64,000 bases of DNA from Anaerolineae bacterium (GCA_034420635.1 DAOULD010000136.1:14372-78371); one strand, 5' to 3'; shown: positions 2,856 through 37,495, counted from the stretch's first letter. Notes: generated by a model not told the origin, from the sequence alone. Program-made: numbers and translations.

Positions 2856-3479
2856 GTGACCTTGGCTTTCGACTTTGAAGAGACGCCGGTACTGGAGACC
2901 GAGCGGCTTCGCTTGCGGCGCATCCAGCCCAGCGACCTGGCTGCCTGGGCGGAGATCTGGCAGTGCGTAAGCGTGAGGCAATACTTGCTTGAATTTGAAG
3001 AGGTCCCCGATGATTCGGCGGTATGGTCCATCATGGAATGGGCGGGCCGCATTTTCAAGCGGAAGACGGGCATTCGCTGGGCGATCACGCTGAAACCGAA
3101 GGATCGTATGATAGGCTCCTGCGGTTTCCATCTGTACGATGCGGGCAACAGGCGGCTGGAGATCGGCTACGAGTTGCATAAGGCTTACTGGCGAAGGGGA
3201 ATCATGACTGAGGCGGTTGCTGAAGTTTTGCGCTTCTGTTTTGATTGCCTGAATGTTCATCGCGTCGAAGCCGATGTAACCGAAGGCAACGTCGCGTCGG
3301 CTGCCTTGCTGCGAAAGCTGGGTTTTGTTTTGGAAGGCCTTTGGCGCGAGCGCGTCTATTCGCGCGGCGCCTATCATGGCATGTGGCAATTTGGCCTGCT
3401 CGAACAGGAATATTATCGGAATATGGAAGATGCGAGATGTGTCCCACTTGTAAAGCGCCCTCATCTGCCACATAGCTGA
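2856..3479 (+). CDS. GNAT family N-acetyltransferase (RimJ/RimL-like)
   Basis: 207-aa ORF with a GTG start. N-terminal ETERLRLRRIQPSDL and the core AYWRRGIMTEAV...VHRVEADVTEGNVASAALLRKLGF are typical of the Acetyltransf_3/RimL type. It ends 33 nt upstream of GT-C paralog 1. Confidence 0.8.
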   Translation: MTLAFDFEETPVLETERLRLRRIQPSDLAAWAEIWQCVSVRQYLLEFEEVPDDSAVWSIMEWAGRIFKRKTGIRWAITLKPKDRMIGSCGFHLYDAGNRRLEIGYELHKAYWRRGIMTEAVAEVLRFCFDCLNVHRVEADVTEGNVASAALLRKLGFVLEGLWRERVYSRGAYHGMWQFGLLEQEYYRNMEDARCVPLVKRPHLPHS

Positions 3480-3512
3480 TTTGAGTTGAACGGCGGTACC
3501 TAGGGAGCTTCC

Positions 3513-5399
3513 ATGAACTTCCGAAGCCACGCATGTCTATTTTTGATGGTTTTCATCCTTCTCCTGGCGTTTTTTCTTGGCGCGCGCGAACTGAATAGAT
3601 TTCCCGTTTGGGGTGACGAACTCTCCACTTTGACAAACATTGGAGCATTCGACCCGCCATATACGCCGTCGGCTGTTGTGAAATCGCTTCTGCATTATAC
3701 GCCGCTTGAAATGCCAGCATTCTTGGTTGTCAGCGCGTTATGGGCCCAGTTGGCTGGATGGTCGCAGTTTGTATTGCGTCTTCTGTCGCTGTTTGCCGGA
3801 TTGGCGTTTGTCGCCTTCGTTTATCGCTTCGCCGCGGAAAACTTTGGCAAGAACAGCGGCCTGTTTGCCGCGTTACTTCTTAGCACGAATGCGTTCGTTT
3901 TGGTTTTCTTTTCGGAGTTTCGCACTTACACGCTTTTGCTGCTAACTTTCATGGTACACCTATGGCTATATGCCAGGCTCTGGCGATGCCGCAAACCGAC
4001 CACAGCAGGCGTTCTGCTCTTCGCACTGTCTGGTTCGATGATGCTATACACACATCTTGTTTCCGTTGTCATGATTGTTGCTCTTGTCTTCGTCCACATT
4101 ATTTCACAGCCAAAGAACCATCGATGGCGGCAAATCCTTGTTGCGTGGACTATAAGCTTTCTGCTGTTTTTGCCATACGCTCTTGGACTGCTGCGCGAAA
4201 TATCGGAAAAGACAAACGATCCTGGCGCTGCATCAACTCTTGAGCTATTGATCGCCATCGCAGACATCGCGTCAAATGGACTGCTTTGGCTGATGCTCCC
4301 CTTGTTGGGCTCGTTAGTTTACCTAATGCTGCGCAGGCGCAGATGGATAGCGCAGTATATCTTTCTCGTTGCCATTGCTTCATTTCTTGTCCTGCTCTTT
4401 CTCAATATGGTATTCAATGTAATAGTCATAAACAGAATGCGATACTTTCTTCCGGTAATCTCTTTGATGCTCATTCTTTTCTCGGCAGGTCTGGCTTCTA
4501 TAGCAAGGCGGCGCGTCTTTGGCGTTGCTGTTCTGGTGATATCCTGTGTTGCTGGCGTCGGGCTTGCAGGCTCGAACGAAAGCGTCGTGTACGCTGGGTT
4601 AATTGTCAAATCACGAGAATTTCCTCCATTAAACCGATATGTTTATCACCTTCGCGACAAACTGGGCGGCGACGAATTTGTTCTGGGATTCACTAAGCAT
4701 GAAGTGATCAATGAGCCTGAACGCTTCAGTTCCCACAGCTTTGTCGATTACTACCTGCAGGCGCAACTCGGTATTGACGGCGTATTCCTGCACACAAATC
4801 GCAAACGCTATCGGTTGGAGCAAGATGTCCGGTCGATTCTCAGAGCCCATCCTCACGTTCTACTTGCGCACGACCCTTCGAACGTGCCGCTCAACTATGC
4901 TCGAACGCTTGCAATCATTGAAGAAGCTTACCTAGCGTACGCATCGTTGGTGGAGGAGCCGGCGCTGCGAATCCGCAAATATGCGCATCCGGTTATGGGC
5001 TGCGACCGTGAACCGGCATCAATTCAGTACGAAAATGGCGCGCGCTTGTTGGACCGCGCCATTGAATTCGATATTGACGACCAGCGAATAGACGCATTGA
5101 CCTGGTGGAATGTGCCAGACGAAGCCATGCTGGACGAATACAACATTTCCTTACAAATCATCTCATCAGAAGGGAAGAATGTCCGACAAACCGATCGTCA
5201 TCTTTATGACAATATCGTGCCATGGTCTGTGATCGATTTGTCGACAGAAGAGTTGCCTGCCGATGACTATGAGCTTGTCTTGATATTGTACAGACGTGAT
5301 TCGGGGTCGAAAGTTGTCGGAGTGGATCAATCAACTGAGGAGTTTGGCAGTATACTTCCCTTGCTGGGCTTCACCAGGCGCCTGGAAGATGCGGAATGA
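3513..5399 (+). CDS. GT-C fold membrane glycosyltransferase (PMT_2/ArnT-like, GT39/83-like) with C-terminal extracytoplasmic domain; paralog 1 of 8 (subgroup A)
   Basis: 628 aa with about 10-12 hydrophobic segments in the first ~360 aa. Acidic loop-1 motif VWGDELSTL follows TM1. Shared paralog motifs: FSEFRTYTLL, MLYTHLVS, LPYA, RMRYFLP. C-terminal domain motifs: HPHVLLAHDPSNVPLNYARTL, MGCDREPASIQYENG, YNISLQ, DDYELVLILY. Confidence 0.8.
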   Translation: MNFRSHACLFLMVFILLLAFFLGARELNRFPVWGDELSTLTNIGAFDPPYTPSAVVKSLLHYTPLEMPAFLVVSALWAQLAGWSQFVLRLLSLFAGLAFVAFVYRFAAENFGKNSGLFAALLLSTNAFVLVFFSEFRTYTLLLLTFMVHLWLYARLWRCRKPTTAGVLLFALSGSMMLYTHLVSVVMIVALVFVHIISQPKNHRWRQILVAWTISFLLFLPYALGLLREISEKTNDPGAASTLELLIAIADIASNGLLWLMLPLLGSLVYLMLRRRRWIAQYIFLVAIASFLVLLFLNMVFNVIVINRMRYFLPVISLMLILFSAGLASIARRRVFGVAVLVISCVAGVGLAGSNESVVYAGLIVKSREFPPLNRYVYHLRDKLGGDEFVLGFTKHEVINEPERFSSHSFVDYYLQAQLGIDGVFLHTNRKRYRLEQDVRSILRAHPHVLLAHDPSNVPLNYARTLAIIEEAYLAYASLVEEPALRIRKYAHPVMGCDREPASIQYENGARLLDRAIEFDIDDQRIDALTWWNVPDEAMLDEYNISLQIISSEGKNVRQTDRHLYDNIVPWSVIDLSTEELPADDYELVLILYRRDSGSKVVGVDQSTEEFGSILPLLGFTRRLEDAE

Positions 5400-5460
5400 T
5401 GCGCGTTCTCGTGATAGCTTGATATCACACATTGTGAGTTTATTCTGAAACTACAGACAG

Positions 5461-7377
5461 ATGAAACCTGCGGACAAATCTGAAGCCACGATCCAAAGAA
5501 ATCGCCTGGTAGCGATTGCCGCCATGACGTGCATATTGCTGCTGGCATTCGCGCAGGGCGCTCACGGCTTGAATCTGGATCCGATATGGGCGGACGAGTT
5601 GTACTCATTGACAAGCATGGGAGCCTTTGAGTCCCCCTACACTCTTGGTGAAGTAGTGCAATCTTTGCGTCGATACAACCCTGATCACGTTCCGCTCTAC
5701 TTTTATATAGGAGCGCTTTGGGCAAGAATAGCCGGCTGGTCTCAGTTGTCTATGCGACTAATATCGCTGCTTTTCGGCATGCTTACAGCAGCGACGCTAT
5801 ATCGCTTTGGAGCGCAGGTCGTAAGCCAACGAACAGCGCTGGTTGCTGCCTTTTTGACCGTCACAAGCGCTTTTGTGATTTTGTATTTTCATGATCTGCG
5901 CATGTATACAATGCTAATGTGGCTTGGTATCCTTCACACTTGGCTTTACTGGCGAATTGCGCATGGACATCATGTTTCGCGGCTGACTTGGGTATTGTTC
6001 TACGGATCCGCCATTTCCCTGTTTTATACGCACAATTTTTCAACGTTAGTATTTGCTGGGCTAGCCTTCTATCATCTGCTGTTTATAAAGAAGTCACTTT
6101 GCTGGCTTAAGATCGTTGTCGCGTGGTGCATCTGCGCCCTAGTGTTTTTGCCTTATGCGCCTTTTGTGATTGACGGTATTCTGCTGCATCAAGAATTCGA
6201 CCGAAACCCCTTAGATACCTTGGCCGTGATAGATACGTTTGCCTTGCTATTGGCCAATGGTCAGATCATCCTATGGCTGCCCATTCTGTTGACGGTCGGA
6301 TACGCGCTTGCGCGTCGCCAAAGCGGCTCGATTCTGCGGATCCTTGCTGTCGCAAGTTCTATGGTCGTCGTACTTCTTGCCGTACATACGGCATTTCACC
6401 TTATTACTATTACCCGTCTGCGATATCTGCTCGTCCCATGGTTACTTATAAACGTTGTCATTGCATTCGGCATTGCGGAAATCCCGAAACACGCATGGAT
6501 CGCTCATCTGTTGATTCTTGCCTGGCTGATTGCGGGTTACCGATTTACGAGTTCAGGAGATATTCTCAACTACGCCGGGCTGATGTCAAGAACGGAGAAC
6601 TTTCCGCCATTGCACCAATATGAACGTCATTTGAGGGACAGCGTGGCATCAACGGATTTTCTGGTGGGTTTTGACGAATCAGGCGTAGTGAGTCAGGTGC
6701 ATCGTGAGTATTACAGCGCAAACAGCATCAGTGATTACTACTTGCAGACAATGCTTGGGATAGACGGCACATTTCTCCATCCAAGCAAGAAACGCTATCG
6801 CCTTGAGCGAGATGTACGCGAAATTCTACAATCACATCCTCACGTTCTACTTGCGCACGACCCTTCGAACGTGCCGCTCAACTATGCTCGAACGCTTGCG
6901 ATCATTGAAGAAGCTTACGTACCGTGTACATCGTTGGTGGAGGAGCCGGCGTTGCGGATTCGCAAATACACGCATCCTGTCATGGGCTGCGACCGTGAAC
7001 CGGCATCAATTCAGTACGAAAATGGCGCGCGCTTGTTGGATCGCGCCATTGAATTCGATATTGACGACCAGCGAATAGACGCATTGACCTGGTGGGATAT
7101 CCCGGACGACGAAATGCTGAACCAATACAATATTTCCTTGCAAATAATCACCTCGGATTGGCAAAACATTCGGCAAGTTGATCGCCATCTTCATGATGAT
7201 TTGGTCCCTTGGGGTGTCAGCGAGCTGTCGACTGCAGACCTGCCCTCTGGGGACTATCGGCTGATGTTGATAGTATACGATAGATTTACCGGTGTAAAAT
7301 TGGGCGGCATCGACTTGATAAGCAGTCAGTCTGGGGAAATCTTACCACTGTTAAGTTTCGAAATAGACTCACAGTGA
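5461..7377 (+). CDS. GT-C fold membrane glycosyltransferase with C-terminal domain; paralog 2 of 8 (subgroup A)
   Basis: 638 aa. Motifs: IWADELYSL, NPDHVPLYFYI (HPPLY-like), FHDLRMYTML, WLYWRIAHG, LFYTHNFS, RLRYLL. The C-terminal domain is near-identical to paralog 1 over 6835-7095 and to paralog 4 over 7084-7212. Confidence 0.8.
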   Translation: MKPADKSEATIQRNRLVAIAAMTCILLLAFAQGAHGLNLDPIWADELYSLTSMGAFESPYTLGEVVQSLRRYNPDHVPLYFYIGALWARIAGWSQLSMRLISLLFGMLTAATLYRFGAQVVSQRTALVAAFLTVTSAFVILYFHDLRMYTMLMWLGILHTWLYWRIAHGHHVSRLTWVLFYGSAISLFYTHNFSTLVFAGLAFYHLLFIKKSLCWLKIVVAWCICALVFLPYAPFVIDGILLHQEFDRNPLDTLAVIDTFALLLANGQIILWLPILLTVGYALARRQSGSILRILAVASSMVVVLLAVHTAFHLITITRLRYLLVPWLLINVVIAFGIAEIPKHAWIAHLLILAWLIAGYRFTSSGDILNYAGLMSRTENFPPLHQYERHLRDSVASTDFLVGFDESGVVSQVHREYYSANSISDYYLQTMLGIDGTFLHPSKKRYRLERDVREILQSHPHVLLAHDPSNVPLNYARTLAIIEEAYVPCTSLVEEPALRIRKYTHPVMGCDREPASIQYENGARLLDRAIEFDIDDQRIDALTWWDIPDDEMLNQYNISLQIITSDWQNIRQVDRHLHDDLVPWGVSELSTADLPSGDYRLMLIVYDRFTGVKLGGIDLISSQSGEILPLLSFEIDSQ

Positions 7378-9296
7378 AGCAAAACTCAACAGACGATACT
7401 TCTGAATTCAAAGGCGCTGCCGGCGACGTATCGACGCTAGCAAGCATAGTCGTCGTATTGCTGCTTGCTTTTGCCTTGGGCGCCTATGGTCTTGATCGAG
7501 ATTCGCTTATCGGGGATGAACTCAACTCGCTGTCAATCATGGGCGCTTTCGATCAGGCGCATTCGCCGGCCGATGTCGTGGCGCTCTTAAAACAATACGC
7601 TCCGGATCACCAACCGCTTTATTTCGTTCTTGGCTGGGCCTGGGCCCAGTTGACCGGCCTGTCGCAATTTACCATGCGGCTGCATGCCTTGCTGATTGGC
7701 ATGTTGATGTTTGCCTGGCACTATCGCCTGGCAACGGACCTGGCAGGCCGGCGCGTCGCGGTTTTGGCCGCGTTGCTCGTGAGCGCAAACGCCTTGGTCA
7801 TCACAAATCTTCACCACATTCGAATGTACAGTTTGGTCATGCTGTTTGCAGTCATACACTTTTGGCTCTATTGGCGGCTGGTTCACGGGCCTGGCAAGGG
7901 ACGTTTAACATGGAGTCTTTTTGTCGCGTCATGTACCGCCTTTATGTATACCCACAATTATTCTCTTGTATTCTTCGCCGCGCTGGGCATTTATCATTTG
8001 CTCTTCATTGCGCGATCAAGTCAATGGCTTCGGGTAATGGCGGCTTGGGCGCTGGGTTTCGCACTGTTTCTTCCCGGTCTTTGGCTTACTCTGGCTGGGA
8101 TATCTTTCCAATTCGAATACGCAAGGAATCATCCGCTGCTTACACACGAGCTGATTGCGGCTCTGGCGCTGGACTTCAGCAATCATCTTGCCGCGCTTTG
8201 GCTCCCGATGGTTGTTGCCCTCGGTTTGTCGCTATACCGCTGCAGAACGGGGGTCGTTGCGAGGTTGGCGTTTATTGGTCTTGCTATGTTTGTCATTATG
8301 GCTTCAATAAACGCTGTGACGCAAAGCATAGATTGGACAAGAACGCGCTACTTCCTGATGATGTGGCCCCTGTTCGTGATCAGTTTTTCCGCCGCTCTCT
8401 ATTCCTTGCCGCTGAAACGCGTATTATTACCCTTATTCATTTTGCTTTGGGCTGTTTCTGGATATCGAGTCGCGTACACCGATGTTGTCTTCCAATACGC
8501 GTTCGTTTTCTATCCGAACAAAGCGTATCCACCGCTTCACAGATACGTGCAGCACTTGAGGGGAAAGGTCCGCGCAGACGATTATGTGCTCGGCTTTAGA
8601 ACATCGGACGAGATATTTGCGCGTTGGTCCACTGTTGGAGGAACCTTTATCGATTTTTATCTTGGCAACCGATTGGGTATCGACGGCGCTTTCTTGCACG
8701 CCAGCCTCAAACGCTACCGGCTTTCGGAAGACACGCGCGACATTCTCTCGGCTCATCCCCATTTATTGCTGGCTCACGATCCGAGCAATGTCCCGCTCAA
8801 CTACGCGAAAACACTGGAAGTCGTTCAGGAAGTTCTCATGCCATGTGACAAGTTGGCAGATGAACCTGCGTTGTCAATCCGCAGATACGCGCATCCCGTT
8901 ATGGGCTGCGACCATGAACCCGCATCAATTCATTACGAAAACGGCGCGCGCTTGTTGGATCGCGCAGCGCGCTACGATGCAGCCGGGCAGCGAATAGCGG
9001 CATTGACCTGGTGGGAAATCCCGGATGACGAAATGCTGGACTTGTACAATGTTTCACTGCAAATTATCACCCCGGATTGGCAGAATCTGCGCCAAGTCGA
9101 TCGTCACCTTTATCGTCGAATGGTCCCTTGGAGCGTCATTGAGCTGTCTACTGCGGGGCTGCCCGAGGGCGAGTACCGGCTGATGTTGATTCTGTACAGT
9201 CGCGAAACGGGCGAGAGAGTTGGCGCTACAGATTTGTCGAGTGGCGAGTCAGGGTTTATGCTGCCGCTGCTATCTTTCAACATACGCGCTAAATGA
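7374..9296 (+). CDS. GT-C fold membrane glycosyltransferase with C-terminal domain; paralog 3 of 8 (subgroup A)
   Basis: 640 aa. The GTG start overlaps the paralog-2 stop (GTGA). Motifs: LIGDELNSL, APDHQPLYFVL, LHHIRMYSLV, WLYWRLVHG, FMYTHNYS, HPHLLLAHDPSNVPLNYAKTL, MGCDHEPASIHYENG, YNVSLQ, GEYRLMLILY. Confidence 0.8.
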   Translation: MKQNSTDDTSEFKGAAGDVSTLASIVVVLLLAFALGAYGLDRDSLIGDELNSLSIMGAFDQAHSPADVVALLKQYAPDHQPLYFVLGWAWAQLTGLSQFTMRLHALLIGMLMFAWHYRLATDLAGRRVAVLAALLVSANALVITNLHHIRMYSLVMLFAVIHFWLYWRLVHGPGKGRLTWSLFVASCTAFMYTHNYSLVFFAALGIYHLLFIARSSQWLRVMAAWALGFALFLPGLWLTLAGISFQFEYARNHPLLTHELIAALALDFSNHLAALWLPMVVALGLSLYRCRTGVVARLAFIGLAMFVIMASINAVTQSIDWTRTRYFLMMWPLFVISFSAALYSLPLKRVLLPLFILLWAVSGYRVAYTDVVFQYAFVFYPNKAYPPLHRYVQHLRGKVRADDYVLGFRTSDEIFARWSTVGGTFIDFYLGNRLGIDGAFLHASLKRYRLSEDTRDILSAHPHLLLAHDPSNVPLNYAKTLEVVQEVLMPCDKLADEPALSIRRYAHPVMGCDHEPASIHYENGARLLDRAARYDAAGQRIAALTWWEIPDDEMLDLYNVSLQIITPDWQNLRQVDRHLYRRMVPWSVIELSTAGLPEGEYRLMLILYSRETGERVGATDLSSGESGFMLPLLSFNIRAK

Positions 9297-11212
9297 AAGC
9301 AATGCGCGCCGATACTGCAAACGCCAGGAACAGGGATCTCAGCCATTTGTCCCTGCTCGCTCTAACGGTTGTTATATTGCTTTTCTCTTTTGCTGTTGGC
9401 GCGCGCGGGTTGAACGCGGACCTGGTGTGGAATGATGAATTGGCGTCGCTCACCAACTTCGGCGCCTTCAATAGGACACTGACCCTGCAAGGCGTGATCG
9501 AATTAATGCAGCAGTATAGTCCTGCGGATGTACCTGTTTTCCCCTGGATCGGCTACATATGGGCGCGACTAGCTGGATGGTCGCAATTTGCCCTGCGGTC
9601 GCTGTCTCTTTTTGCCGGTGTATTAATGATCGCCCAATTGAATAGCTTTGCGTCCAGAGTTTTCGATCGGCGGGTAGCCGTCGTTGCCTCGTATCTTATC
9701 GGGAGCAGTTCTTTCGTATTGCTTTACTTTCACGAGCTGCGAACCTATACGATTTTCATGCTCTTTGTCACTATCTATTTGACAGCCTATTGGGAGCTTG
9801 CTTTCGCTGCTCGCGCGACGTTTTTTCCCAGGCTGCTTATTCCAATATGTACGGTTGTCCTTCTCTATACGACAATTATTTCGTTAGTCTTTTTCGCGAC
9901 GCTTGCGATAATTCATGTCTTGTTCGCTCCAAAAAGGCGGCAGTGGATAGAGATCGTGTTGAGTTGGGTGCTTGGCGCGATGTTCATGCTTCCGTTCGCA
10001 GCATCGCACGCGCAAGGGGTGGGGCTGGTTACAAATGATGGGTTGGCCGCTTCCGCTCCCGAAGTTCTTTGTGCCTTCTTGCGTCTTGCCGTCAACGGCC
10101 TGGACTTTTTGTGGGCTCCGCTTATAGCTGTTGTGTGCTACGCGCTGTGGAAGACAGCCAATCGCGACCTGCTGCGATTAATCGCGTTTGCGGCGATCAC
10201 GGTCGCGCTCCTGCTGTTGGCGAACGACCAGTTCGCGCTAATTGCTGTAACGCGGATTCGTTATTTCCTGCTCGCCTGGATCCTACTTGTCGTCATTTTC
10301 GCATGCGGCTTGGTCTCATTGCCCCGTTGGAAGTTGCCTACGGTCGTTCTACTGGCGATATGGTTCGTGGCGGGCAGCCAGTTCGGACAATCTGCAGACT
10401 TCTCAACATATTATGCTGGCGCGAAAGCATCCGCGCCGGATGCGCCCCCGCTATCGCAAATTGTAACCCGCCTTCGAGGAAGGGCAGGACCTCAAGACTT
10501 CTTGCTTGGGTTTTATGAATCTTACGATCCGAACTATGTTTGGCAGGTCCACAGCGCCGGAAGCGTCGCCGACTACTACTTGAATACTCAACTGGGCATT
10601 GACGGCGTGTTTCTTCATGCGAATCGCAAACGCTATCGGCTGGAGGAAGACGTCCGGTCGATTCTCAGATCCCATCCTCACGTTCTGCTTGCCCACGACC
10701 CATTGAAAGTCCCGCTGAACTATGCCAGAACGCTTGCGATCATTGAAGAAGATTACCTAGCGTGCGCATCGTTGGTGGAGGAGCCGGCGCTGCGAATCCG
10801 CAAATATGCGCATCCCGTTATGGGCTGCAATCACCAACCCGCTCCCATTGATTACGACAATGACATACGATTAATTGACCGCGCCGCGCGTTACGATACC
10901 GACGCAGAGGTTGTTCAAGCGTTGACCTGGTGGGATGTCCCGGACGGCGAAATGCTGAACCAATACAATATTTCCTTGCAAATCATCACCTCGGATTGGC
11001 AAAACATTCGACAAATTGATCGCCATCTTTATGACGGATTGGTCCCTTGGAGTGTCATTGAACTGTCCACGGCAGATCTCCCCCTCGACGACTACCGGAT
11101 CATGTTGATCTTGTACAATCGAGAGAACGGGTCCAAAGTCCCAGGCGTCGATGAACTCAGCGGCGAATCGGCCGGTATTCTTCCGATTGCGTCTTTTTCC
11201 ATCGACACCTAG
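9293..11212 (+). CDS. GT-C fold membrane glycosyltransferase with C-terminal domain; paralog 4 of 8 (subgroup A)
   Basis: 639 aa. The ATG start overlaps the paralog-3 stop (ATGA). Motifs: VWNDELASL, SPADVPVFPWI, FHELRTYTIF, LLYTTIIS, HPHVLLAHDPLKVPLNYARTL, MGCNHQPAPIDYDND, YNISLQ, DDYRIMLILY. Confidence 0.8.
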   Translation: MKAMRADTANARNRDLSHLSLLALTVVILLFSFAVGARGLNADLVWNDELASLTNFGAFNRTLTLQGVIELMQQYSPADVPVFPWIGYIWARLAGWSQFALRSLSLFAGVLMIAQLNSFASRVFDRRVAVVASYLIGSSSFVLLYFHELRTYTIFMLFVTIYLTAYWELAFAARATFFPRLLIPICTVVLLYTTIISLVFFATLAIIHVLFAPKRRQWIEIVLSWVLGAMFMLPFAASHAQGVGLVTNDGLAASAPEVLCAFLRLAVNGLDFLWAPLIAVVCYALWKTANRDLLRLIAFAAITVALLLLANDQFALIAVTRIRYFLLAWILLVVIFACGLVSLPRWKLPTVVLLAIWFVAGSQFGQSADFSTYYAGAKASAPDAPPLSQIVTRLRGRAGPQDFLLGFYESYDPNYVWQVHSAGSVADYYLNTQLGIDGVFLHANRKRYRLEEDVRSILRSHPHVLLAHDPLKVPLNYARTLAIIEEDYLACASLVEEPALRIRKYAHPVMGCNHQPAPIDYDNDIRLIDRAARYDTDAEVVQALTWWDVPDGEMLNQYNISLQIITSDWQNIRQIDRHLYDGLVPWSVIELSTADLPLDDYRIMLILYNRENGSKVPGVDELSGESAGILPIASFSIDT

Positions 11213-11260
11213 AACCATTTGTGGTACGACGAGACCTTCTGAAAACTCTTCTGCGGCTCA

Positions 11261-13198: not shown

Positions 13199-13236
13199 AG
13201 TTAGCGCTTCAATCTCATCGTGGGAAGAAGTCGCAA

Positions 13237-15192
13237 TTGGCAACTTTTCCCGACTGGGGAGACTTCGTCTTGCAGTTCCGCAGCATCTTCTCCGACAAAC
13301 ATGATACTATCGGCAAGGACGCGTCATCTTTGCTGATGGTCTTCGTTCTCCTCTGCGTTTTTGTGTTTGGCGCCAATGGCTTGAATACCGACTCCATCTG
13401 GACCGATGAGCTATACGCCATTACCAACATGGGTGGATTCGACGGACCTTATTCGCCGGCGGAAGTTGTCAATTCAGTAGCCGAGAACTTCCCCGATCAC
13501 GTGCCGCTCTTCTTCTTGCTTGGCGCCGGCTGGGCAAACTTCGTGGGATGGACGCAATTCGCCCTGCGCTTGTTGCCGGTATTCGCGGGCGTACTCATGA
13601 TTGCCTGGACGTATCGCCTGGCGAGCGACATGTTTGATCGTTTTGCTGGCTTGGCTGCCGCAAGTCTCTTGGCTACCTCGGCCTACATGGTCCTGTATAT
13701 CCATGACTTCCGTATGTATTCACTGTTTCTCACGCTCGCTATTGTACATTTGTGGCTTTATTGGAAACTGATGGAGCGCAAATCAATAGATGGCCGTCCG
13801 ACATTTGTGGCTTTCGTGTTGTCGGCGGTTGCGCTGATTTACACGCACTTCTTCTCGATCATCTTTTTCACAGGGCTTGGCGCATATCATCTCCTAATCT
13901 TGCGGAAGTCTCGCCGTTGGTGGCAAACGTTGCTAGGCTGGGCGATTGCCGCAACGCTCTTCTTGCCCTATCTGCCGGTCTTGATTGCTGGCGTTCAGCG
14001 CGCTGCGGACAAGCCAAATGTCACTAGCAGAGCGGCTTCGGCTCCCGAATTGCTTTCCACGTTTCTCTGGCTGCTGACAAACGGGGCGCCCTGGCTGCTG
14101 GTTCTCCTGACTCTGCTTGTGGCTATCGGCTTTCGTCGCCGGCGCGATCATAAGGCTGCAAAATTCACGCTGATCCCGCTGACGATGGTGATCTTGATCA
14201 TCGTCGCCAATGAGTGGATTGGTCTCATCCCCTTGACCAGGATGCGATATTTCTTGATTGTCTGGATTCCGATGTTCCTCATCATAGCTTATGGCTTGAG
14301 TGCTTTGCCGAGCCGGCGCGCCGTGACAACGCTCATCATGCTGATGTGGTGTCTGTCTGGCTTTCAGTTTTATCGGTCAGAAGAGATCATGAACCATGTA
14401 GGCAGTATGGTGTTTACCAGGCTCTATCCGCCACTGCCTGATTATGTCTGGCATTTGACGGGAAAACTGCGCTCGGAGGATTATCTGCTGGGATTCTCCA
14501 AGAGCAGCCATGTGAACAAAGTCCTGACACTGGGGAAGAGTGTGGCGGATTATTACACGCAGGAGCAACTGGGTATCAATGGCGCCTTTATCCGTCGTGG
14601 CGCCTATGGAGAATGGCTGGAAGGTGAGATCAGGCAATGGATGGGAAATCAGCCCTATCTATTATTCGCGTTTGATCCTCAAGATTTGCCAAACAGTTAT
14701 CAGCGAGTGCGCGAAGTCATCGAAAGCAAGTATTTGCAATGCGAAGTCGTGGTGGAAGAACCGCAACTTTTTGTCCAGCGCTATGTCAATTTACGTCTGG
14801 GCTGTGACCGCGAATACCGGCCGATAGCCTATGAAAATGGCGTGACGCTGGTCGACCGTTTCGCCCAATATGCTCCGGAAGAGCAGAAAGTCTACATCCT
14901 TACCGGTTGGGAAGTGGAGAACGAAGAGGCGCTATATGAGTATAATTTGTCCTTGCAATTCATCACGCCGGATTGGCAACGACTGGGAGCGCAAATCGAC
15001 CGCCATCTTTATGATAATATTCTCCCGTGGTTTACGGCCGAATTGTCTACCGAGGATCTGCCGCCCGGCGATTATCGCCTGATGGTCATCCTCTACGATC
15101 GCGAATCGCGGAAGAAAGTGGGGGGAGTCGTCCTGGCCAGCGGGTGGGAAGACAGTATCTTCCCGATAGTCTCGTTTACCGTAGAAGCCTGA
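13237..15192 (+). CDS. GT-C fold membrane glycosyltransferase with C-terminal domain; paralog 6 of 8 (subgroup B)
   Basis: 651 aa; the longest ORF starts at TTG, so the true start is uncertain. Motifs: IWTDELYAI, FPDHVPLFFLL, IHDFRMYSLF, WLYWKLMER, LIYTHFFS, RMRYFLIVW, QPYLLFAFDPQDLP, LGCDREYRPIAYENG, YNLSLQ, GDYRLMVILY. Confidence 0.8.
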   Translation: MATFPDWGDFVLQFRSIFSDKHDTIGKDASSLLMVFVLLCVFVFGANGLNTDSIWTDELYAITNMGGFDGPYSPAEVVNSVAENFPDHVPLFFLLGAGWANFVGWTQFALRLLPVFAGVLMIAWTYRLASDMFDRFAGLAAASLLATSAYMVLYIHDFRMYSLFLTLAIVHLWLYWKLMERKSIDGRPTFVAFVLSAVALIYTHFFSIIFFTGLGAYHLLILRKSRRWWQTLLGWAIAATLFLPYLPVLIAGVQRAADKPNVTSRAASAPELLSTFLWLLTNGAPWLLVLLTLLVAIGFRRRRDHKAAKFTLIPLTMVILIIVANEWIGLIPLTRMRYFLIVWIPMFLIIAYGLSALPSRRAVTTLIMLMWCLSGFQFYRSEEIMNHVGSMVFTRLYPPLPDYVWHLTGKLRSEDYLLGFSKSSHVNKVLTLGKSVADYYTQEQLGINGAFIRRGAYGEWLEGEIRQWMGNQPYLLFAFDPQDLPNSYQRVREVIESKYLQCEVVVEEPQLFVQRYVNLRLGCDREYRPIAYENGVTLVDRFAQYAPEEQKVYILTGWEVENEEALYEYNLSLQFITPDWQRLGAQIDRHLYDNILPWFTAELSTEDLPPGDYRLMVILYDRESRKKVGGVVLASGWEDSIFPIVSFTVEA

Positions 15193-15245
15193 GCGCTAAT
15201 TGATCAAGCTCTGCCGTCGCAGATCTACAGGTACGGAATCAAGCC

Positions 15246-17195
15246 ATGCGCGCTGCACAATCCAGTAGCTCAAAGCAAAAGCGAAATACGGAACAGGACG
15301 CAAACGGTTGGGAGATCGGCCGCGGAAGCGCGCTGGCCTTGCTGACTATCATAATGTTGATGGCTTTTGCTTTCGGCGCCAATGGACTGAATACCGAACC
15401 GATTTGGGCGGATGAATTGTATTCTCTGACCAATATGGGTGTTTTCGATCCACCCTATAGCCCACAACAGATCATCAATTCGATTACAACCTATAGTTCG
15501 GATCATGTACCGCTGTATTACCTGCTGGGATCGGTATGGGCGCAATTAGTCGGATGGTCCCAGGTTTCCATGCGCATGTTTTCGGTGCTGTCCGGGGTGC
15601 TTATGATTGCATGGCTTTATCGCCTGTCAACGGAAGTATTCTGCCAGCGGACAGGTTTGATTGCGGCGCTGCTCATGACCACATCGGCTTACGTAATTGT
15701 CTTCTTCCACGATATCCGCATGTATACGATGCTGTTATTGCTGTTCGCCATGCAGGCCTGGTTCTATTGGCGAATTGCTCACACACAGCAAGTGTCCCGC
15801 CTGTACTGGGTCGCATTCTTCTTATCTGCCTTGGCTCTACTTTATACACATGTATTCTCGCTGCTGGTTTTCACACTGCTCGGCTTATACCACCTGTTAT
15901 TTGCGCCACGGTCGGCGCGCTGGCTTCGTTTGCTGACTGTTTGGGGACTAACCGGGCTGCTGTTTTTGCCGTATTTACCAACATTGTTTACCGCCATTGC
16001 TTTGGCCGCGGAAAACGTAAAGGTGACGACTGCCGCGGCGTCTATCCCGGAATTGATCTACAATTTTGCTTTCCTGCTCTTCAATGGTCAGGATTTGTTG
16101 ATCCCGCTGTTTGCAGGGATTGTGATTTACTCCTTATGGCGCACCCGTTCCAGCGTCGCCTGGAAATTCGCGCTGGTGTCGCTGGCGGTATTGCTGCTGA
16201 TCACTTTGCTCAACGAGCTTGTGGGCATCATCCCGGTAAAGCGCATGCGATATTTCCTCATCTTGTGGATCCCCTTCGTCATGATCTGCGCCTTTGGCCT
16301 TACATCAATGCCGCGTTGGCGCCGCGCCACTTTTTTGTTCGCGCTGATTTGGATATCTGCGGGTTACCAATTCTATCGCTCACAACAACTGTTAGACTAT
16401 ATTGGCGGTATGCAGAAGGCGCGTCTTCACCCGCCAATACACGAATACGCGGACGCGCTGCTTGGCAAGGTTCGGTCGGAAGACTTCCTGCTGGGGTTTT
16501 CCTTCGTTGATTATGTGAACAATGTCTACAAGTTTGGCGATAACGTGATTGACTATTATACCGGCGCGCAGTTGGGTATCGACGGCGCTTTTATTCCCTG
16601 GCGCTGGAGTGGGGAACGTTTGATGATCGATCTCGTTCGCAAGATCGATCGACATCCCTATATCTTGCTCGCCTACCATCCAAATGACCTCAAAAAGAAT
16701 CACGAAGACGTGTACGAGTACATCGCGGCCCGCTACGATAGTTGCGAGGCGATCATTGATAGAGAAGACCTGTTTGTTCAGCGTTTCGTGAATCCCCTAG
16801 CGGGTTGCCAGCACGAATACCTGCCCATTCATTTCGAAAACGGAATCATCATCGTCGACCGATTCGGCGAGTACGATGCGACGAAGGACCTGTTTCGGAT
16901 CGTCACCGGTTGGGAAGTCGCGTCCGATCAGCAGCTTGACCAATACAATATCTCGATACAGTTGCTGGATTCTGAATGGGAGAAATACTGGCAAGGCGAT
17001 TGGCATCTCTACAATCGCATCTTGAAATGGCACGAATTGGAATTCCAGCCGACTCGCCAACTCACTCCAGGCGTTTACCGCCTCGTGGTTATCCTATACG
17101 ATCGCGAAACTGGCGAGAGAGTCGCGGGCGTAGACTTAAGCAGTGGCGAAACCGGCCAGCTTCTGCCGCTCTTGACCATCTCTGTCGAAGCCTAG
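15246..17195 (+). CDS. GT-C fold membrane glycosyltransferase with C-terminal domain; paralog 7 of 8 (subgroup B)
   Basis: 649 aa. Motifs: IWADELYSL, SSDHVPLYYLL, FHDIRMYTML, WFYWRIAHT, LLYTHVFS, RMRYFLILW, HPYILLAYHPNDL, AGCQHEYLPIHFENG, YNISIQ, GVYRLVVILY. Confidence 0.8.
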   Translation: MRAAQSSSSKQKRNTEQDANGWEIGRGSALALLTIIMLMAFAFGANGLNTEPIWADELYSLTNMGVFDPPYSPQQIINSITTYSSDHVPLYYLLGSVWAQLVGWSQVSMRMFSVLSGVLMIAWLYRLSTEVFCQRTGLIAALLMTTSAYVIVFFHDIRMYTMLLLLFAMQAWFYWRIAHTQQVSRLYWVAFFLSALALLYTHVFSLLVFTLLGLYHLLFAPRSARWLRLLTVWGLTGLLFLPYLPTLFTAIALAAENVKVTTAAASIPELIYNFAFLLFNGQDLLIPLFAGIVIYSLWRTRSSVAWKFALVSLAVLLLITLLNELVGIIPVKRMRYFLILWIPFVMICAFGLTSMPRWRRATFLFALIWISAGYQFYRSQQLLDYIGGMQKARLHPPIHEYADALLGKVRSEDFLLGFSFVDYVNNVYKFGDNVIDYYTGAQLGIDGAFIPWRWSGERLMIDLVRKIDRHPYILLAYHPNDLKKNHEDVYEYIAARYDSCEAIIDREDLFVQRFVNPLAGCQHEYLPIHFENGIIIVDRFGEYDATKDLFRIVTGWEVASDQQLDQYNISIQLLDSEWEKYWQGDWHLYNRILKWHELEFQPTRQLTPGVYRLVVILYDRETGERVAGVDLSSGETGQLLPLLTISVEA

Positions 17196-17201
17196 ACGCT
17201 C

Positions 17202-19112
17202 ATGCTAGATCCAGCCCCAGGCAAACGTCACCTATTCCAGGCTTTTCCTCGCTGGTGGCGGATGCTGCCGATATTACTGCTGGTAACGCTGCTGGCGGCG
17301 GGTGGGATTAACGCCGATGTCATCTGGTACGATGAACTGACTTCAATCGGCCATGCTGGCGGCTTGACGGGACCCTTTTCGCCGCTGGACGTGCTTCACT
17401 CGATCAGCACGCACAGCCCCAAACATGGTCCCTTGTTCTTTGAATTGCTGGCGGGTTGGGGCGCGCTTGTGGGGTGGCATCATGTTGTCTTGCGCTGCTT
17501 GCCACTCTTCTTTGGCGTTCTGACGGTCGCCTGGGTATACCGTATTGGGCAGGATTTTCTGGGTTGGCGCGCGGGACTATGGGCCAGCGCTTTCCTGGGG
17601 CTGAACGTCTTCTGGTTGGAGTACTTTCACGAAATCCGAATGTACACCGCGCAAGCGGCTATGCTCGTAGCGATGCTTTGGCATTACTTGCACATCGTGC
17701 AATCAAAGTCGACTATTGGCAAAGTACGTTGGTTCGGGCTGATCCTCACGGCATCGTTGTCACTATATGCCCAGCCTTTTTCACTCTTTGTTTTCCTGGC
17801 TGTCGGCTTCTATCACCTGGTATTCGTTCCCAAAACGAAGCGCTGGATTCATACTGCTCTGGCGTTTTTGCTTGTCGGCGTACTATACCTGCCTTGGCTT
17901 CCAGTAACTTACGTAGGGTTGACAACAAAGTTTGACGCTTGGGGAGAAATGCCCTTTGAGCAGGCGGTGGACGTCTTTCTCCAACTGCTGTCTAACGGAA
18001 ACTGGTTGGTGATTCTGATCGCGCTTGCTGCGGCTGCCTTGCACCTGCGGAAGCGCGAGAACTTGAAAAAAGCCTTGCCGTTTTGGGTGCTTGCCTTTGT
18101 CATCCTGGCGCTTCTATTGTCGGTGAATGAAGCTGTTAGACTTATTCCTTTACGCCGGTCTCGCTATTTCTTTGTCGTCTTTTACCCCGCCGCGCTAATC
18201 GTTGGCAGTGGCTTGGCATGGATACGACCGCGTCCGCTACCGATAATCCTCCTGGCGCTGTATATCGGTTCGGGGTTTGTCTTGCGCGGCAGGGACGATT
18301 ATGTCAATTATCAAGGTACGATTCGCGCCATCCAGAGTTATCCTCCCATTTACGACTACGTTCTGGCATTGCGGGATCTTGTCTCCGAAGAAGACTTCGT
18401 GGTCGGATTCTCCAACATCAATTTCATCATACGTCGAGGCAAAGTTGGCAAGAGCACGGCGGATTATTATTTTGAAACGCTGATGGGCATCGATGGAACC
18501 TTTATTCGAACGAACCTTGATAACGCTCAACTTGAGGAGGATATACCAGACAAGCTGGAAGACCATCCCTATCTTCTCTTTACCTACAATCCCTTGGACA
18601 AACCGGCGATCTTCGACCGAACCAGGTCAATCATCGAGAGAGATTATGCGCCTTGCGAACTTGTTTTAGACGAAGCGGAACTCCGCGTAGAGCGCTATGT
18701 CTACCGTACTCTGGACTGTGACCGCAAATATCAGCCGATTCGCTACGACAATGGCATCTCCATCGTTGACAAATTCGCTGATTTCATTCCCGATCGCGAT
18801 GTCCTGCGCGTCGTGACCGGATGGGAAGTGGCCGACAAAGCGCTTCTGGACCAATACAATATATCGATTCAGATCCATTCGCTGGACGGGCAAAAGGTCG
18901 CTCAAATCAACCCGGATCGTCACCTTTACCATGATGTCCTGAAGTGGTTCGTTGTGGAGTTGTCCACGTCAGATCTGTCGCCTGGCGACTATAGGGTTGT
19001 AGTCCTGGTCTATGACCGATATCCTCCGCACGCGAAGGTCTTCGGCAGCGACATCGAATCCGGCGAGTACGGGAAGATATTGCCCATACAGTCCTTCAGC
19101 ATTCCGGGATAG
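17202..19112 (+). CDS. GT-C fold membrane glycosyltransferase with C-terminal domain; paralog 8 of 8 (subgroup B, most divergent)
   Basis: 636 aa, starting 6 nt after the paralog-7 stop. Motifs: IWYDELTSI, SPKHGPLFFEL, FHEIRMYTAQ, SLYAQPFS, RSRYFFVVF, HPYLLFTYNPLDKP, LDCDRKYQPIRYDNG, YNISIQ, GDYRVVVLVY. Confidence 0.8.
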   Translation: MLDPAPGKRHLFQAFPRWWRMLPILLLVTLLAAGGINADVIWYDELTSIGHAGGLTGPFSPLDVLHSISTHSPKHGPLFFELLAGWGALVGWHHVVLRCLPLFFGVLTVAWVYRIGQDFLGWRAGLWASAFLGLNVFWLEYFHEIRMYTAQAAMLVAMLWHYLHIVQSKSTIGKVRWFGLILTASLSLYAQPFSLFVFLAVGFYHLVFVPKTKRWIHTALAFLLVGVLYLPWLPVTYVGLTTKFDAWGEMPFEQAVDVFLQLLSNGNWLVILIALAAAALHLRKRENLKKALPFWVLAFVILALLLSVNEAVRLIPLRRSRYFFVVFYPAALIVGSGLAWIRPRPLPIILLALYIGSGFVLRGRDDYVNYQGTIRAIQSYPPIYDYVLALRDLVSEEDFVVGFSNINFIIRRGKVGKSTADYYFETLMGIDGTFIRTNLDNAQLEEDIPDKLEDHPYLLFTYNPLDKPAIFDRTRSIIERDYAPCELVLDEAELRVERYVYRTLDCDRKYQPIRYDNGISIVDKFADFIPDRDVLRVVTGWEVADKALLDQYNISIQIHSLDGQKVAQINPDRHLYHDVLKWFVVELSTSDLSPGDYRVVVLVYDRYPPHAKVFGSDIESGEYGKILPIQSFSIPG

Positions 19113-19122
19113 GTATTCTGAT

Positions 19123-19797
19123 ATGAATCCAGTCAAGCGTCTGCTGAGGCCGCTCTACGCGCCGCTCGTTCGCAAGTATCGCAATCGCGCGAAATTGAAA
19201 AACCAGCAAGGGCTTATCCGCGCGGGCATCAAAGAATGCACAGGAACCGGAAAGCCGCTCAAAGTCATCATTGGCGCGGGAGATACGCGTTACGAAAACT
19301 GGATCGCGACTGATATTCCCGCATTCCACGTTCTCAAACACGAGCATTGGGCGCTGCTTTTCCAGCCCGCGTCAATCGATAGAATGTTGGCTGAACATGT
19401 CTTTGAGCACTTGACAGTTGATGAGTTGAGCCAGTTTCTCCGTTTGGCGCGTCTCTACATGTCCAAGAGCGGGCGCATTCGACTGGCTGTGCCGGACGGA
19501 AACCATCCGGATGCAGAATACATTGAACATGTGCGCCCGGGCGGCATAGGCGAGGGGGCTGCCGATCACAAGGTGCTCTACACTAGCGAAAAGATCGCAA
19601 ATGTCTTGCGAGAGTGCGGCTACGAATTCCAACTCCTGGAATACTTTGACGCCTCGGGTGAATTTCACCGGGAGCCCTGGCATGCGGAGGACGGATTTAT
19701 CGGTCGATCGGCTGCGCATGACGAGCGAAATGTCGACGGCAAATTGATTTATACCAGCTTGATCGTCGACTGTTGGCCGCGTCAAACCGTCGAGTAG
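19123..19797 (+). CDS. Small SAM-dependent methyltransferase-like protein (COG4627-like)
   Basis: The ORF track gives 19012..19797, but its first 37 codons overlap paralog 8. ATG 19123 (MNPVKRLL) lies 10 nt after the paralog-8 stop. Motifs: VIIGAGDTRYENWIATDI (Gly-rich motif I-like) and MLAEHVFEHL (typical of Methyltransf_11/23-type proteins). Confidence 0.55.
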   Translation: MNPVKRLLRPLYAPLVRKYRNRAKLKNQQGLIRAGIKECTGTGKPLKVIIGAGDTRYENWIATDIPAFHVLKHEHWALLFQPASIDRMLAEHVFEHLTVDELSQFLRLARLYMSKSGRIRLAVPDGNHPDAEYIEHVRPGGIGEGAADHKVLYTSEKIANVLRECGYEFQLLEYFDASGEFHREPWHAEDGFIGRSAAHDERNVDGKLIYTSLIVDCWPRQTVE

Positions 19798-35629: not shown

Positions 35630-35635
35630 AAGGAT

Positions 35636-37493: not shown

Positions 37494-37495
37494 AT

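Follow-up and report, generated by a model that had tools for sequence, protein, structure and literature searches.

A tandem array of eight predicted ArnT-like membrane glycosyltransferase genes with a stable and a hypervariable half in an uncultured Anaerolineae bacterium

Why should a bacterium carry eight membrane glycosyltransferase genes side by side, and do these genes serve one purpose or several? The question is raised by a locus of an uncultured Chloroflexota (Anaerolineae) bacterium, located at positions 3513-19112 of the 64-kb stretch of metagenome-assembled DNA analysed here (the window). A preliminary description, made from the sequence alone, had reported eight consecutive open reading frames of one shared architecture in this region, and this observation was confirmed. 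Eight co-directional ORFs encoding proteins of 628-651 amino acids were found at exactly the positions described; they align end to end with 29-48% pairwise identity, which is far above chance. The genes, designated G1 to G8, are tightly packed (overlaps of 4 nt and gaps of 6-61 nt). The features of the locus are listed below, where L001 to L016 denote corresponding loci in related genomes and a suffix denotes a gene therein.

2856-3479, plus strand: GNAT (Acetyltransf_3, RimJ/RimL-like) N-acetyltransferase gene (PF13302, E 8e-33), 33 nt upstream of G1, also found upstream of the array in L010, L001, L003, L006, L012, L013 and L016; on present evidence the association is positional only.
3513-5399, plus strand: G1, 628 aa, hypervariable half (PMT_2, E 1.9e-11); the most aberrant copy (H87E, H155S, W175A, W341I, W369S, C500Y), which keeps D-E, R158, Y160 and RxRY; an exact match (P0389) is present in a public contig.
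4785-5003, plus strand: gene-conversion tract in the G1 C-domain, matching G4 10610-10828 at ~92-94%.
4848-5109, plus strand: gene-conversion tract in the G1 C-domain, matching G2 6835-7096, with 1 mismatch in 110 nt in the stretch 5000-5109.
5461-7377, plus strand: G2, 638 aa, hypervariable half (PMT_2, E 1.4e-7); part of its C-domain has been overwritten by conversion with G1 and G4.
7087-7191, plus strand: gene-conversion tract in the G2 C-domain, matching G4 10925-11029 at ~95%; G1 differs here.
7374-9296, plus strand: G3, 640 aa, hypervariable half, GTG start overlapping the G2 stop (PMT_2, E 1.7e-6); the extra unit of this genome relative to the 7-copy relatives.
9293-11212, plus strand: G4, 639 aa, hypervariable half (PMT_2, 24.2 bits); divergent at H87D, H170Y, W172T, R176E and H202T.
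11261-13198, plus strand: G5, 645 aa, stable half (PMT_2, E 2.4e-7).
13237-15192, plus strand: G6, 651 aa with a TTG start (the true start may be slightly downstream), stable half (PMT_2, E 2e-7), although its membrane domain has been replaced by a divergent allele.
15246-17195, plus strand: G7, 649 aa, stable half, used as the modelled reference.
17202-19112, plus strand: G8, 636 aa, stable half (PMT_2, E 6e-6); the deepest-branching member, with an ortholog even in the 5-copy array of L012.
19123-19797, plus strand: conserved methyltransferase-like ORF of 224 aa, starting 10 nt after the G8 stop; the listed ORF 19012-19797 is probably over-extended upstream.

The ORF downstream of G8 is called 'predicted SAM-dependent methyltransferase' in JGI records and travels with the array. 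Orthologs (62-94% identity) are found directly after the last GT-C gene in all loci, including the rearranged L013, and omega is 0.17-0.22. The methyltransferase assignment rests on source names and one PF13489 hit, whereas no Pfam or PDB hit was obtained for the ORF of the window.

The assignment of the eight proteins to the GT-C superfamily was supported by sequence profiles and by structure prediction. All eight match Pfam PMT_2 (PF13231) at residues ~70-240 (E 2e-11 to 5e-5), seven of them above the gathering score, while G4 is just below (24.2 against 26.1 bits). An AlphaFold model of G7 (pLDDT 91.1, pTM 0.86) matched ArnT best in a Foldseek search (5ezm/5f15, E 2e-8, TM 0.52-0.55 on the target, ~600 aligned columns), followed by ALG12, STT3/PglB, Aft (AftA/B/D) and Pmt enzymes; all 33 PDB matches at E ≤ 0.001 are GT-C enzymes. 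In the predicted layout of G7, TM1 (residues 26-45) is followed by a first outer loop (46-89) with D56-E57, about 11-13 helices up to residue ~377, an alpha/beta subdomain (~385-520) and a beta-sandwich (~525-649). At the sequence level, no link to any biochemically characterised GT-C was found: NCBIfam returned no family at E ≤ 0.01 for five paralogs, and no PDB sequence was hit by phmmer or with a 68-sequence profile at E ≤ 10. Membership in CAZy GT83 (ArnT) is therefore not supported by sequence, ArnT being only the nearest fold, and the functional inference rests on fold and motifs only. The public annotation 'glycosyltransferase family 39' is nominal, since neither a PMT (PF02366) nor a MIR domain is present and no Pmt sequence in the PDB was hit.

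The D-E-L motif after TM1 is present in all eight proteins. D56/E57, R158, Y160, R333, R335 and Y336 (G7 numbering) are invariant in 68 homologs and in all eight paralogs. The D-E pair lies 10 residues after TM1 in a strongly acidic loop (net charge -4.9 and 0.8 Lys/Arg on family average) and is thus predicted to face outside. The other motifs proposed in the preliminary description are family consensus features rather than universal ones, as G1, G4 and G8 deviate at several of them. G1 has SEFRTY where the others have FH(D/E)xRMY, G4 has LYTTIIS where the others have LYTHxFS, and G8 has WHYLHI where the others have WLYWR; these three proteins have lost several near-invariant residues and might be altered or inactive. 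The AT-richness noted by eye is real but modest. GC content is 0.49-0.53 in the array and 0.55-0.60 in the neighbours, while GC3 is 0.53-0.54 in G1/G2, 0.59-0.60 in G3/G4 and 0.61-0.63 in G5-G8, compared to 0.62-0.76 in other genes of the window.

The last ~270 residues, described beforehand as one uncharacterised domain, are hydrophilic, homologous in all eight proteins and match no Pfam, NCBIfam or PDB sequence. In the model (pLDDT 91) they form two subdomains, an alpha/beta part and a beta-sandwich. The latter resembles the carbohydrate-binding domain of Wzt, which binds O-antigen (TM 0.47 on the target, E ~1e-3), and GH2 sandwiches, but these matches are weak and generic (E 1e-5 to 1e-3, TM ≤ 0.48). 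The region occurs almost only in this ~640-aa architecture (542 of 1.84 billion representatives).

An assembly expansion, which had been named beforehand as a refuting scenario, is excluded. The copies are far too diverged for an assembly duplication, an identical G1-G2-G3 stretch occurs in a second, independently named assembly, the locus (HdrD-like, GNAT, array, methyltransferase-like ORF) recurs in related genomes, and the array is syntenic in eleven other genomes, with the same ordered paralogs in independent assemblies including the closed chromosomes OZ242327, OZ253499 and OZ220735. Copy number ranges from 3 to 8, with one pseudogenised copy in L016, so that the view of an eight-member array as far beyond precedent needs tempering: within this lineage, arrays of 3-8 copies are the rule. 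Omega is 0.10-0.27 for the six paralogs with a usable ortholog pair (G2, G4-G8), indicating purifying selection.

The comparison with related loci divided the array into two halves. G5-G8 are stable 1:1 orthologs in the trees, kept distinct down to 53-67% identity, and collinear DNA identity of 85-92% was found only from G5 rightward. G5 has 1:1 orthologs (53-91%) in L001-L011 and L016 (omega 0.22), and omega is 0.13-0.15 for G7 and 0.11-0.13 for G8. The G6 membrane domain is only 73% identical to that of L001_5 (dS 0.77), in contrast to 93% in the C-domain (dS 0.21). G1-G4 are hypervariable, and their membrane domains are swapped for 33-36%-identical types between close relatives. The membrane domain of G1 is 33-36% identical to that of the position-1 gene of close relatives (35% to L001_1, with 66% in the C-domain), but 74% to L016_1. 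Against L006_2, the membrane domain of G2 is 92% identical (dS 0.16), whereas its C-domain is only 77% identical (dS 0.87). G3 has no ortholog in L001-L012, and two collinear blastn blocks of the window overlap on L006 3608-3944. The G4 ortholog L001_3 is 70% identical with dS ~1.0; the dS of swapped segments (0.77-1.0) contrasts with a background of 0.15-0.2. The C-domain DNA of G1-G4 is homogenised by gene conversion, with up to 99% nucleotide identity in the tracts and, in the tract shared by G1 (4848-5109) and G2, a third-codon-position identity of 93-97% compared to ~30% elsewhere; the pattern is a mosaic from separate events. Paralog-specific conserved residues flank the two active-site motifs.

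The interpretation given in the preliminary description, GT-C (ArnT-like) enzymes in a tandem array, is supported by these data. Of its two alternatives, an assembly line for a complex extracytoplasmic polysaccharide or glycoprotein and a diversifying family with different acceptor specificities, a mixture is supported, with a conserved four-gene core and a diversifying four-gene set. With moderate confidence, each gene is taken to encode an ArnT-like GT-C integral-membrane glycosyltransferase. In this view, the sugar would be taken from a polyprenyl-phosphate-linked donor at the outer face of the cytoplasmic membrane, the Asp-Glu pair would do the chemistry, and conserved Arg/His/Tyr residues (H155-D-x-R158-x-Y160, R333-x-R335-Y336) would hold the lipid phosphate. 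The acceptor would be extracytoplasmic, most likely a cell-envelope glycopolymer, which the C-terminal module outside the membrane would help to hold. The analysis itself demonstrates the fold (as modelled), the motifs, the outside-type charge of the D-E loop, purifying selection, synteny, copy-number variation, conversion tracts and domain-level mosaicism, whereas catalysis, donor class, acceptor, the role of the C-terminal module including any glycan binding, expression of the genes and the biological purpose of the variability are inferred. The higher variability of the membrane domains could also reflect relaxed constraint rather than selection for diversity. Scans for promoters and terminators were uninformative. 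The pathway context is missing within the window: no GT2 polyprenyl-phosphate sugar synthase, GtrA-type flippase or any other glycan-synthesis gene was found by Pfam among the ~44 ORFs scanned, nor were a GT2 synthase or GtrA-type flippase found in the called genes of L012, L013 and L016, although such genes may lie elsewhere in the genome.

ArnT (GT83; 4-amino-4-deoxy-L-arabinose transferase) shares the overall plan of a cytoplasmic N-terminus, TM1, a long first outer loop carrying the catalytic acidic residue, a multi-helix bundle and a C-terminal soluble alpha/beta domain, and its donor is an undecaprenyl-phosphate sugar. The array proteins differ by the additional ~125-aa beta-sandwich. 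The acceptor of ArnT, lipid A, is not expected in Chloroflexota, which are regarded as lacking LPS, and arnT is a single-copy gene within an arn operon supplying its donor, which is not present here. The mycobacterial EmbC-EmbA-EmbB and AftA/B/D arabinosyltransferases, the former cited as a precedent in the preliminary description, are tandem GT-C paralogs that each make a different linkage on a wall polysaccharide, use a polyprenyl-phosphate sugar donor and carry C-terminal extracytoplasmic carbohydrate-binding modules, an analogy which the weakly matching beta-sandwich may fit. However, they are much larger (~1100-1400 aa) with different CBM folds, Emb has three copies instead of eight, and to our knowledge neither a hypervariable half nor domain-restricted gene conversion has been described for emb. 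In extracytoplasmic glycan-decoration systems (Gtr-type O-antigen modification, CsbB/YfhO, and GT-C side-chain transferases of streptococcal and lactococcal rhamnose wall polysaccharides; PMC11754754, PMC10821137), several GT-C enzymes in one genome each add a different side-chain sugar outside the membrane, and their presence or absence gives strain-specific surface glycans, which is the behaviour proposed for G1-G4. There, each GT-C is paired with an adjacent GT2 synthase and often a GtrA flippase, and the GT-C genes are dispersed rather than in an eight-gene tandem array. Protein O-mannosyltransferases (GT39; Pmt1/2/4, bacterial Pmt) share the GT-C fold, the D-E motif in loop 1 and the organisation in multi-paralog families, but have a different C-terminal module.

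Among other explanations, the one that survives best, though unlikely, is that the enzymes are protein O-glycosyl (mannosyl) transferases, as the public label 'glycosyltransferase family 39' implies, each glycosylating a different set of secreted or surface proteins as they emerge from the membrane. This is in line with the name of PMT_2, with the Pmt1/2/4 and TMEM260-like models among the weaker structural matches and with the multi-paralog eukaryotic PMTs, which act on different substrates. It is weakened by the absence of PF02366 and MIR domains, by the better scores of ArnT, ALG12 and STT3, by the beta-sandwich, which is closest to glycan-binding modules, and by the lack of obvious target protein genes linked to the array. 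It is doubtful, too, that the paralogs form a hetero-oligomeric complex as Pmt1-Pmt2 do, with G1, G4 and G8 as non-catalytic scaffolds and the shared C-domain as the oligomerisation interface, which would be why it is kept alike. The lost residues, the homogenised C-domains of G1-G4 and the tight gene packing, compatible with co-translation, are in favour of it. However, all eight proteins keep the D-E pair, R158/Y160 and RxRY, the varying copy number is hard to reconcile with a fixed complex, and near-identity at third-codon positions shows conversion, not selection on an interface. A neutral birth-and-death expansion with largely redundant copies, in which the variability of G1-G4 would be relaxed constraint plus recombination with no adaptive role, is similarly improbable. 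Omega is higher than for the housekeeping neighbour (0.08), a pseudogene exists, and G1/G2 have the lower GC3 expected for weakly expressed genes. On the other hand, G5-G8 have been kept as distinct orthologs, all tested copies are under clear purifying selection, replaced segments are intact, divergent, selected alleles rather than decayed sequence, and paralog-specific conserved residues cluster at the active-site motifs. An assembly artefact, for which only the repetitive nature of the array and its metagenomic source could be put forward, is refuted by the data given above.

In the favoured explanation, G5-G8 and the downstream methyltransferase-like gene form a conserved core in which each paralog keeps its own orthologous identity and so presumably its own linkage or acceptor step. 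G1-G4 would be a fast-turnover set, whose membrane (catalytic) domains are exchanged for very different types between closely related genomes, whose copies are gained and lost by unequal crossing-over within the conserved C-domain DNA, and whose C-domains are kept alike by gene conversion. The expected outcome would be a common glycan scaffold with strain-specific decorations, which suggests a variable sugar coat at the cell surface of this bacterium.

Eight open reading frames on the plus strand, termed G1 to G8 according to their order, encode 628 to 651 aa large proteins and are located as follows:

3513-5399, plus strand: G1, GT-C paralog
5461-7377, plus strand: G2, GT-C paralog
7374-9296, plus strand: G3, GT-C paralog
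9293-11212, plus strand: G4, GT-C paralog
11261-13198, plus strand: G5, GT-C paralog
13237-15192, plus strand: G6, GT-C paralog
15246-17195, plus strand: G7, GT-C paralog
17202-19112, plus strand: G8, GT-C paralog

The array thus lies exactly where the preliminary description had placed it, and this observation is confirmed. The genes are either separated by 6 to 61 nt or overlap by 4 nt. The gene products align over their whole length at 29 to 48% identity and are, therefore, old and diverged paralogs rather than an artefact of repeat assembly. All eight match the Pfam family PMT_2 (PF13231) at residues ~70-240, seven of them above the curated cut-off, while G4 scores slightly below (24.2 against 26.1 bits). 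The last ~270 residues are homologous in all eight proteins and match nothing in Pfam, NCBIfam or the PDB sequences. The sequence motifs listed in the preliminary description are real as consensus features; D-E-L after the first transmembrane helix (TM1) is universal, whereas several of the other motifs are lost in G1, G4 and G8. The lower G+C content noticed there is real but modest (0.49 to 0.53 in the array against 0.55 to 0.60 elsewhere). GC3 is 0.53 to 0.54 in G1 and G2, rising to 0.61 to 0.63 in G5 to G8, compared to 0.62 to 0.76 in other genes. Because of the lower GC, a horizontal acquisition of the whole array was considered, but this was rejected since the locus is syntenic and vertically inherited and only G1 and G2 stand out in GC3.

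An AlphaFold2 model of G7, built on 68 homologs, was of high confidence (mean pLDDT 91.1, pTM 0.86). In a Foldseek comparison of this model with the PDB, ArnT was the best match (5ezm/5f15, E 2e-8, TM 0.52 to 0.55 on the target, ~600 aligned columns), followed by ALG12, STT3/PglB/AglB, AftA/B/D, ALG9, Pmt4/Pmt1-2 and DPY19. Every match at E<=0.001 is a GT-C enzyme. D56, E57, R158, Y160, R333, R335 and Y336 (G7 numbering) are invariant across the 68 homologs and retained in all eight paralogs of the window, while H87, H155, Y200-T201-H202 and others are nearly invariant in the homologs. The loop following TM1 (residues 46-89, carrying D56-E57) has a family-average net charge of -4.9 and contains only 0.8 Lys/Arg, which is the signature of an extracytoplasmic loop under the positive-inside rule. 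The number of membrane helices is estimated to be 11 to 13, although a Kyte-Doolittle topology estimate gave inconsistent counts (5 to 9) across the paralogs, and family-averaged charges resolved only the N-terminal tail and the first loop. Sequence searches with G7 and with a 68-sequence profile against all PDB chains gave no hit, even at E<=10, so that no residue-level mapping onto ArnT was possible, and NCBIfam returned no family for five paralogs. Since a sequence-level link to any solved or curated GT-C was not found, not even with a profile, the proteins are GT-C by (predicted) fold and clan-level HMM, but not members of GT83 (ArnT) or GT39 (PMT) in the strict sense. The public label “glycosyltransferase family 39 protein” is nominal. 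The earlier interpretation of the gene products as GT-C type glycosyltransferases is hence supported.

The C-terminal region, modelled alone (pLDDT 91.4), comprises two predicted subdomains. The first is an alpha/beta unit (G7 ~385-520) located where ArnT-like enzymes have their periplasmic domain, and the second is a beta-sandwich of ~125 aa (~525-649). The best small-domain match was the carbohydrate-binding domain of the O-antigen ABC transporter Wzt (8dky/6o14, TM ~0.47 on the target, E ~1e-3), followed by the Ig-like sandwiches of GH2 glycosidases and the FnIII domain of POMGNT2. These matches are weak and compatible with a glycan-binding role, but do not prove it. A Pfam search with the isolated C-domains at E<=10 gave only noise. 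With a profile of the eight C-regions, only 542 hits at E<=0.001 were found among 1.84 billion representative proteins. Virtually all full-length hits are 600 to 680 aa large with the module at the C-terminus, and more distant ones still carry PMT_2. The module is therefore specific to this GT-C subfamily.

The neighbouring genes are housekeeping genes. Upstream of the array, an HdrD-like Fe-S protein and a GNAT acetyltransferase are encoded. Downstream, a 224-aa ORF is followed by genes for lipoamide dehydrogenase and a SpoU methylase on the other strand, and further on by ribonucleotide reductase and the dcw cell division/peptidoglycan cluster. No polyprenyl-phosphate sugar synthase, flippase or polysaccharide gene was found in the window. 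Promoter and terminator scans showed no excess over shuffled sequences and no intergenic terminator, and neither a tRNA gene nor an Rfam family reached the threshold anywhere in the 64 kb. The following features surround the array:

2829-3530, minus strand: 233-aa ORF without family hit, antisense to the GNAT gene and most likely a shadow ORF
19012-19797 (probable true gene 19123-19797): conserved 224-aa ORF after G8
21212-23188: ~2 kb between lipoamide dehydrogenase and the SpoU methylase, holding only small ORFs without Pfam hits; about 1 kb of it (21320-22290) is not collinear with the closest relative (L001)
27758-28759: protein with five LysM repeats
33028-48592, minus strand: near-complete dcw cluster (MraW, PBP transpeptidase, MraY, MurD-like, FtsW, MurG, MurC, MurB, FtsQ, FtsA and FtsZ), from which it follows that the organism makes peptidoglycan

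The homologs are found in Chloroflexota. Eleven related genomes were retrieved (Anaerolineae, Aggregatilineales and Phototrophicaceae MAGs, several of them closed chromosomes, including OZ242327, OZ253499 and OZ220735), all of which have the same locus in the same place. Of the array loci of related genomes, designated here by L numbers, L010 has six copies and L001, L003 and L006 have seven. More distant relatives keep the unit of GNAT, GT-C array and a ~222-aa ORF with fewer copies, namely five in L012, three in L013 (783, 640 and 1176 aa) and five plus one pseudogene in L016. The array of the window, with eight copies, is the largest seen. The probable pseudogene (L016:11958-13859) is a G2-like copy which aligns to G2 along nearly its whole length (44% identity), but only fragments of 108 and 114 aa were called there. 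In L013, the most distant array, the two larger proteins (L013:7541-9892 and L013:11926-15456) carry the C-terminal module of the family at ~536-782 but gave no PMT_2 Pfam hit; they may have a different or extended membrane domain or may be a fusion. The mechanically called downstream ORF overlaps the end of G8 by 100 nt, whereas its orthologs and the alignment with L007 indicate that the gene probably starts with the Met at 19123, 10 nt after the G8 stop. Its product is highly conserved (63 to 94% across the aligned loci), better than the GT-C proteins, always follows the last GT-C gene and remains attached to the array where the downstream synteny is rearranged. In JGI records it is named “predicted SAM-dependent methyltransferase”. 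This label is supported only by the source names and one precomputed PF13489 hit, as no Pfam, NCBIfam or PDB hit was obtained here with the sequence alone or as a profile, and the methyltransferase fold was not confirmed.

The two halves of the array differ in their evolution. G5, G6, G7 and G8 each have clean 1:1 orthologs in all close relatives, and G8 also has an ortholog in the five-copy array. Collinearity of the DNA at 85 to 92% identity between the window and its relatives runs from the start of G5 rightward, while in the G1 to G4 half only the parts coding for the C-domain still cross-match (65 to 86%). G1 itself is not a unique orphan, since orthologs with 72 to 75% identity are found in other genomes. 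For the six paralogs with a usable ortholog pair (G2 and G4 to G8), dN/dS was 0.10 to 0.27 in all cases, compared to 0.08 for LpdA, from which it is inferred that they are functional. The dS values are very uneven. Against a background of 0.15 to 0.2 between the window and L001, dS is 0.77 in the membrane domain of G6 and ~1.0 in G4, and 0.87 was obtained for the C-domain of G2 against L006. These segments have been replaced by divergent alleles.

The replacement is domain-wise. Between the window and L001, L005 or L006, the first gene of the array is 33 to 36% identical in the membrane domain but 65 to 66% in the C-domain, and the G1-type membrane domain of the window recurs at 74% in L016. 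G6 compared to its L001 ortholog (L001:7992-9944) is 73% identical in the membrane domain and 93% in the C-domain, and G2 compared to its L006 ortholog 92% and 77%, respectively. With a dS of 0.77 in the membrane-domain half of G6 and 0.21 in its C-domain half, a recombination breakpoint lies near the domain boundary even in the otherwise stable half of the array. Within the window, the C-domains of G1 to G4 are 55 to 64% identical while their membrane domains are 31 to 38% identical; no such difference was seen in G5 to G8. The cause is mosaic gene conversion, for which the following tracts were found:

4848-5109 (G1) against 6835-7096 (G2): near-identical, with 1 mismatch in 110 nt at 5000-5109
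~4785-5003 (G1) against G4: ~92 to 94% identical
7087-7191 (G2) against G4: 95% identical

Identity at third codon positions reaches 93 to 97%, against ~30% elsewhere. The difference between seven and eight copies maps to this homology as well. Two collinear blocks of the window both align to L006 and overlap on L006 3608-3944, inside a C-domain, as expected if one unit of 1919 nt (G3) arose or was inserted there by unequal crossing-over. Among the stable paralogs, the few positions which are fixed within each ortholog group but differ between the groups lie next to the two putative active-site motifs (55, 59 and 61 beside D56-E57, and 153, 161 and 163 around H155-D-x-R-x-Y160), and none of them in the beta-sandwich.

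Taken together, the gene products are proposed, with moderate confidence, to be extracytoplasmic glycosyltransferases dependent on polyprenyl-phosphate sugars. That they are GT-C glycosyltransferases as such is held with high confidence, whereas a different specificity of the individual paralogs is about as likely as not. In this view, D56/E57 would act on the acceptor and donor at the membrane surface, as in ArnT, PglB and Pmt, the conserved Arg/His/Tyr residues would bind the lipid phosphate, and the C-terminal module, outside the cell membrane, would hold the acceptor polymer. G5 to G8 would carry out four distinct conserved steps, while G1 to G4 would add variable decorations. The modelled fold, the motifs, the charge of the first loop, purifying selection, synteny, copy-number variation, conversion tracts and domain-level mosaicism emerge from the analysis itself, while catalysis, the donor class, the acceptor, the role of the C-terminal module and the purpose of the variability are inferred. 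The acceptor is more likely a wall or membrane-anchored glycan than lipid A, because Chloroflexota are regarded as lacking LPS, but protein acceptors remain a serious alternative.

The array resembles ArnT in its predicted fold, EmbCAB/Aft in being tandem GT-C paralogs with C-terminal modules, for which glycan binding is inferred here, and Gtr or streptococcal side-chain GT-Cs in the proposed strain-variable decoration. It is not a sequence member of any of those families and, within the window, lacks their adjacent donor-synthesis genes. Literature searches on COG1807, PMT_2 and GT39 in Chloroflexi or symbionts found nothing on this family, its C-terminal module or its arrays, and the sponge-Chloroflexi genome paper does not discuss it. 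The enzyme class is known, while the subfamily-specific module, the syntenic array of 3 to 8 copies and above all the split into a stable half and a cassette-swapping, domain-homogenised half appear to be undescribed. The locus is clearly more than a matter of routine annotation and directly testable, even though its function is inferred and the organism is uncultured.

A further-reaching possibility, which is not excluded but considered unlikely on present evidence, is that G1 to G4 form a recombination-driven cassette system for the diversification of surface glycans. The conserved DNA coding for the C-domain, kept alike by gene conversion, would serve as homology anchor and allow whole catalytic membrane-domain cassettes to be duplicated, deleted and exchanged within the array and between strains. 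Closely related symbionts would then display different envelope glycans, for example to escape phages or host recognition, on top of a constant scaffold made by G5 to G8. Phage escape or host interaction as the reason for the variability is speculation, and the sponge-symbiont origin of some relatives is inferred from MAG names only. To our knowledge, domain-restricted concerted evolution coupled to the swapping of catalytic domains has not been described for GT-C enzymes.

GT-C enzymes build or decorate the outermost glycans of cells, which decide phage adsorption, host recognition and immune evasion. Almost nothing is known about the envelope glycans of Anaerolineae-type Chloroflexota, a group which is abundant and mostly uncultured, and for which some related MAG names hint at a marine-sponge origin. 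The locus provides a defined, conserved and testable gene set of four stable putative enzymes, a variable set and a linked methyltransferase-like gene, and it defines a small, previously undescribed C-terminal module (alpha/beta plus beta-sandwich, as predicted) specific to one GT-C subfamily. Its evolutionary signature, with catalytic domains swapped and the accessory domain homogenised, can be followed in population metagenomes as a marker of strain-level surface variation.
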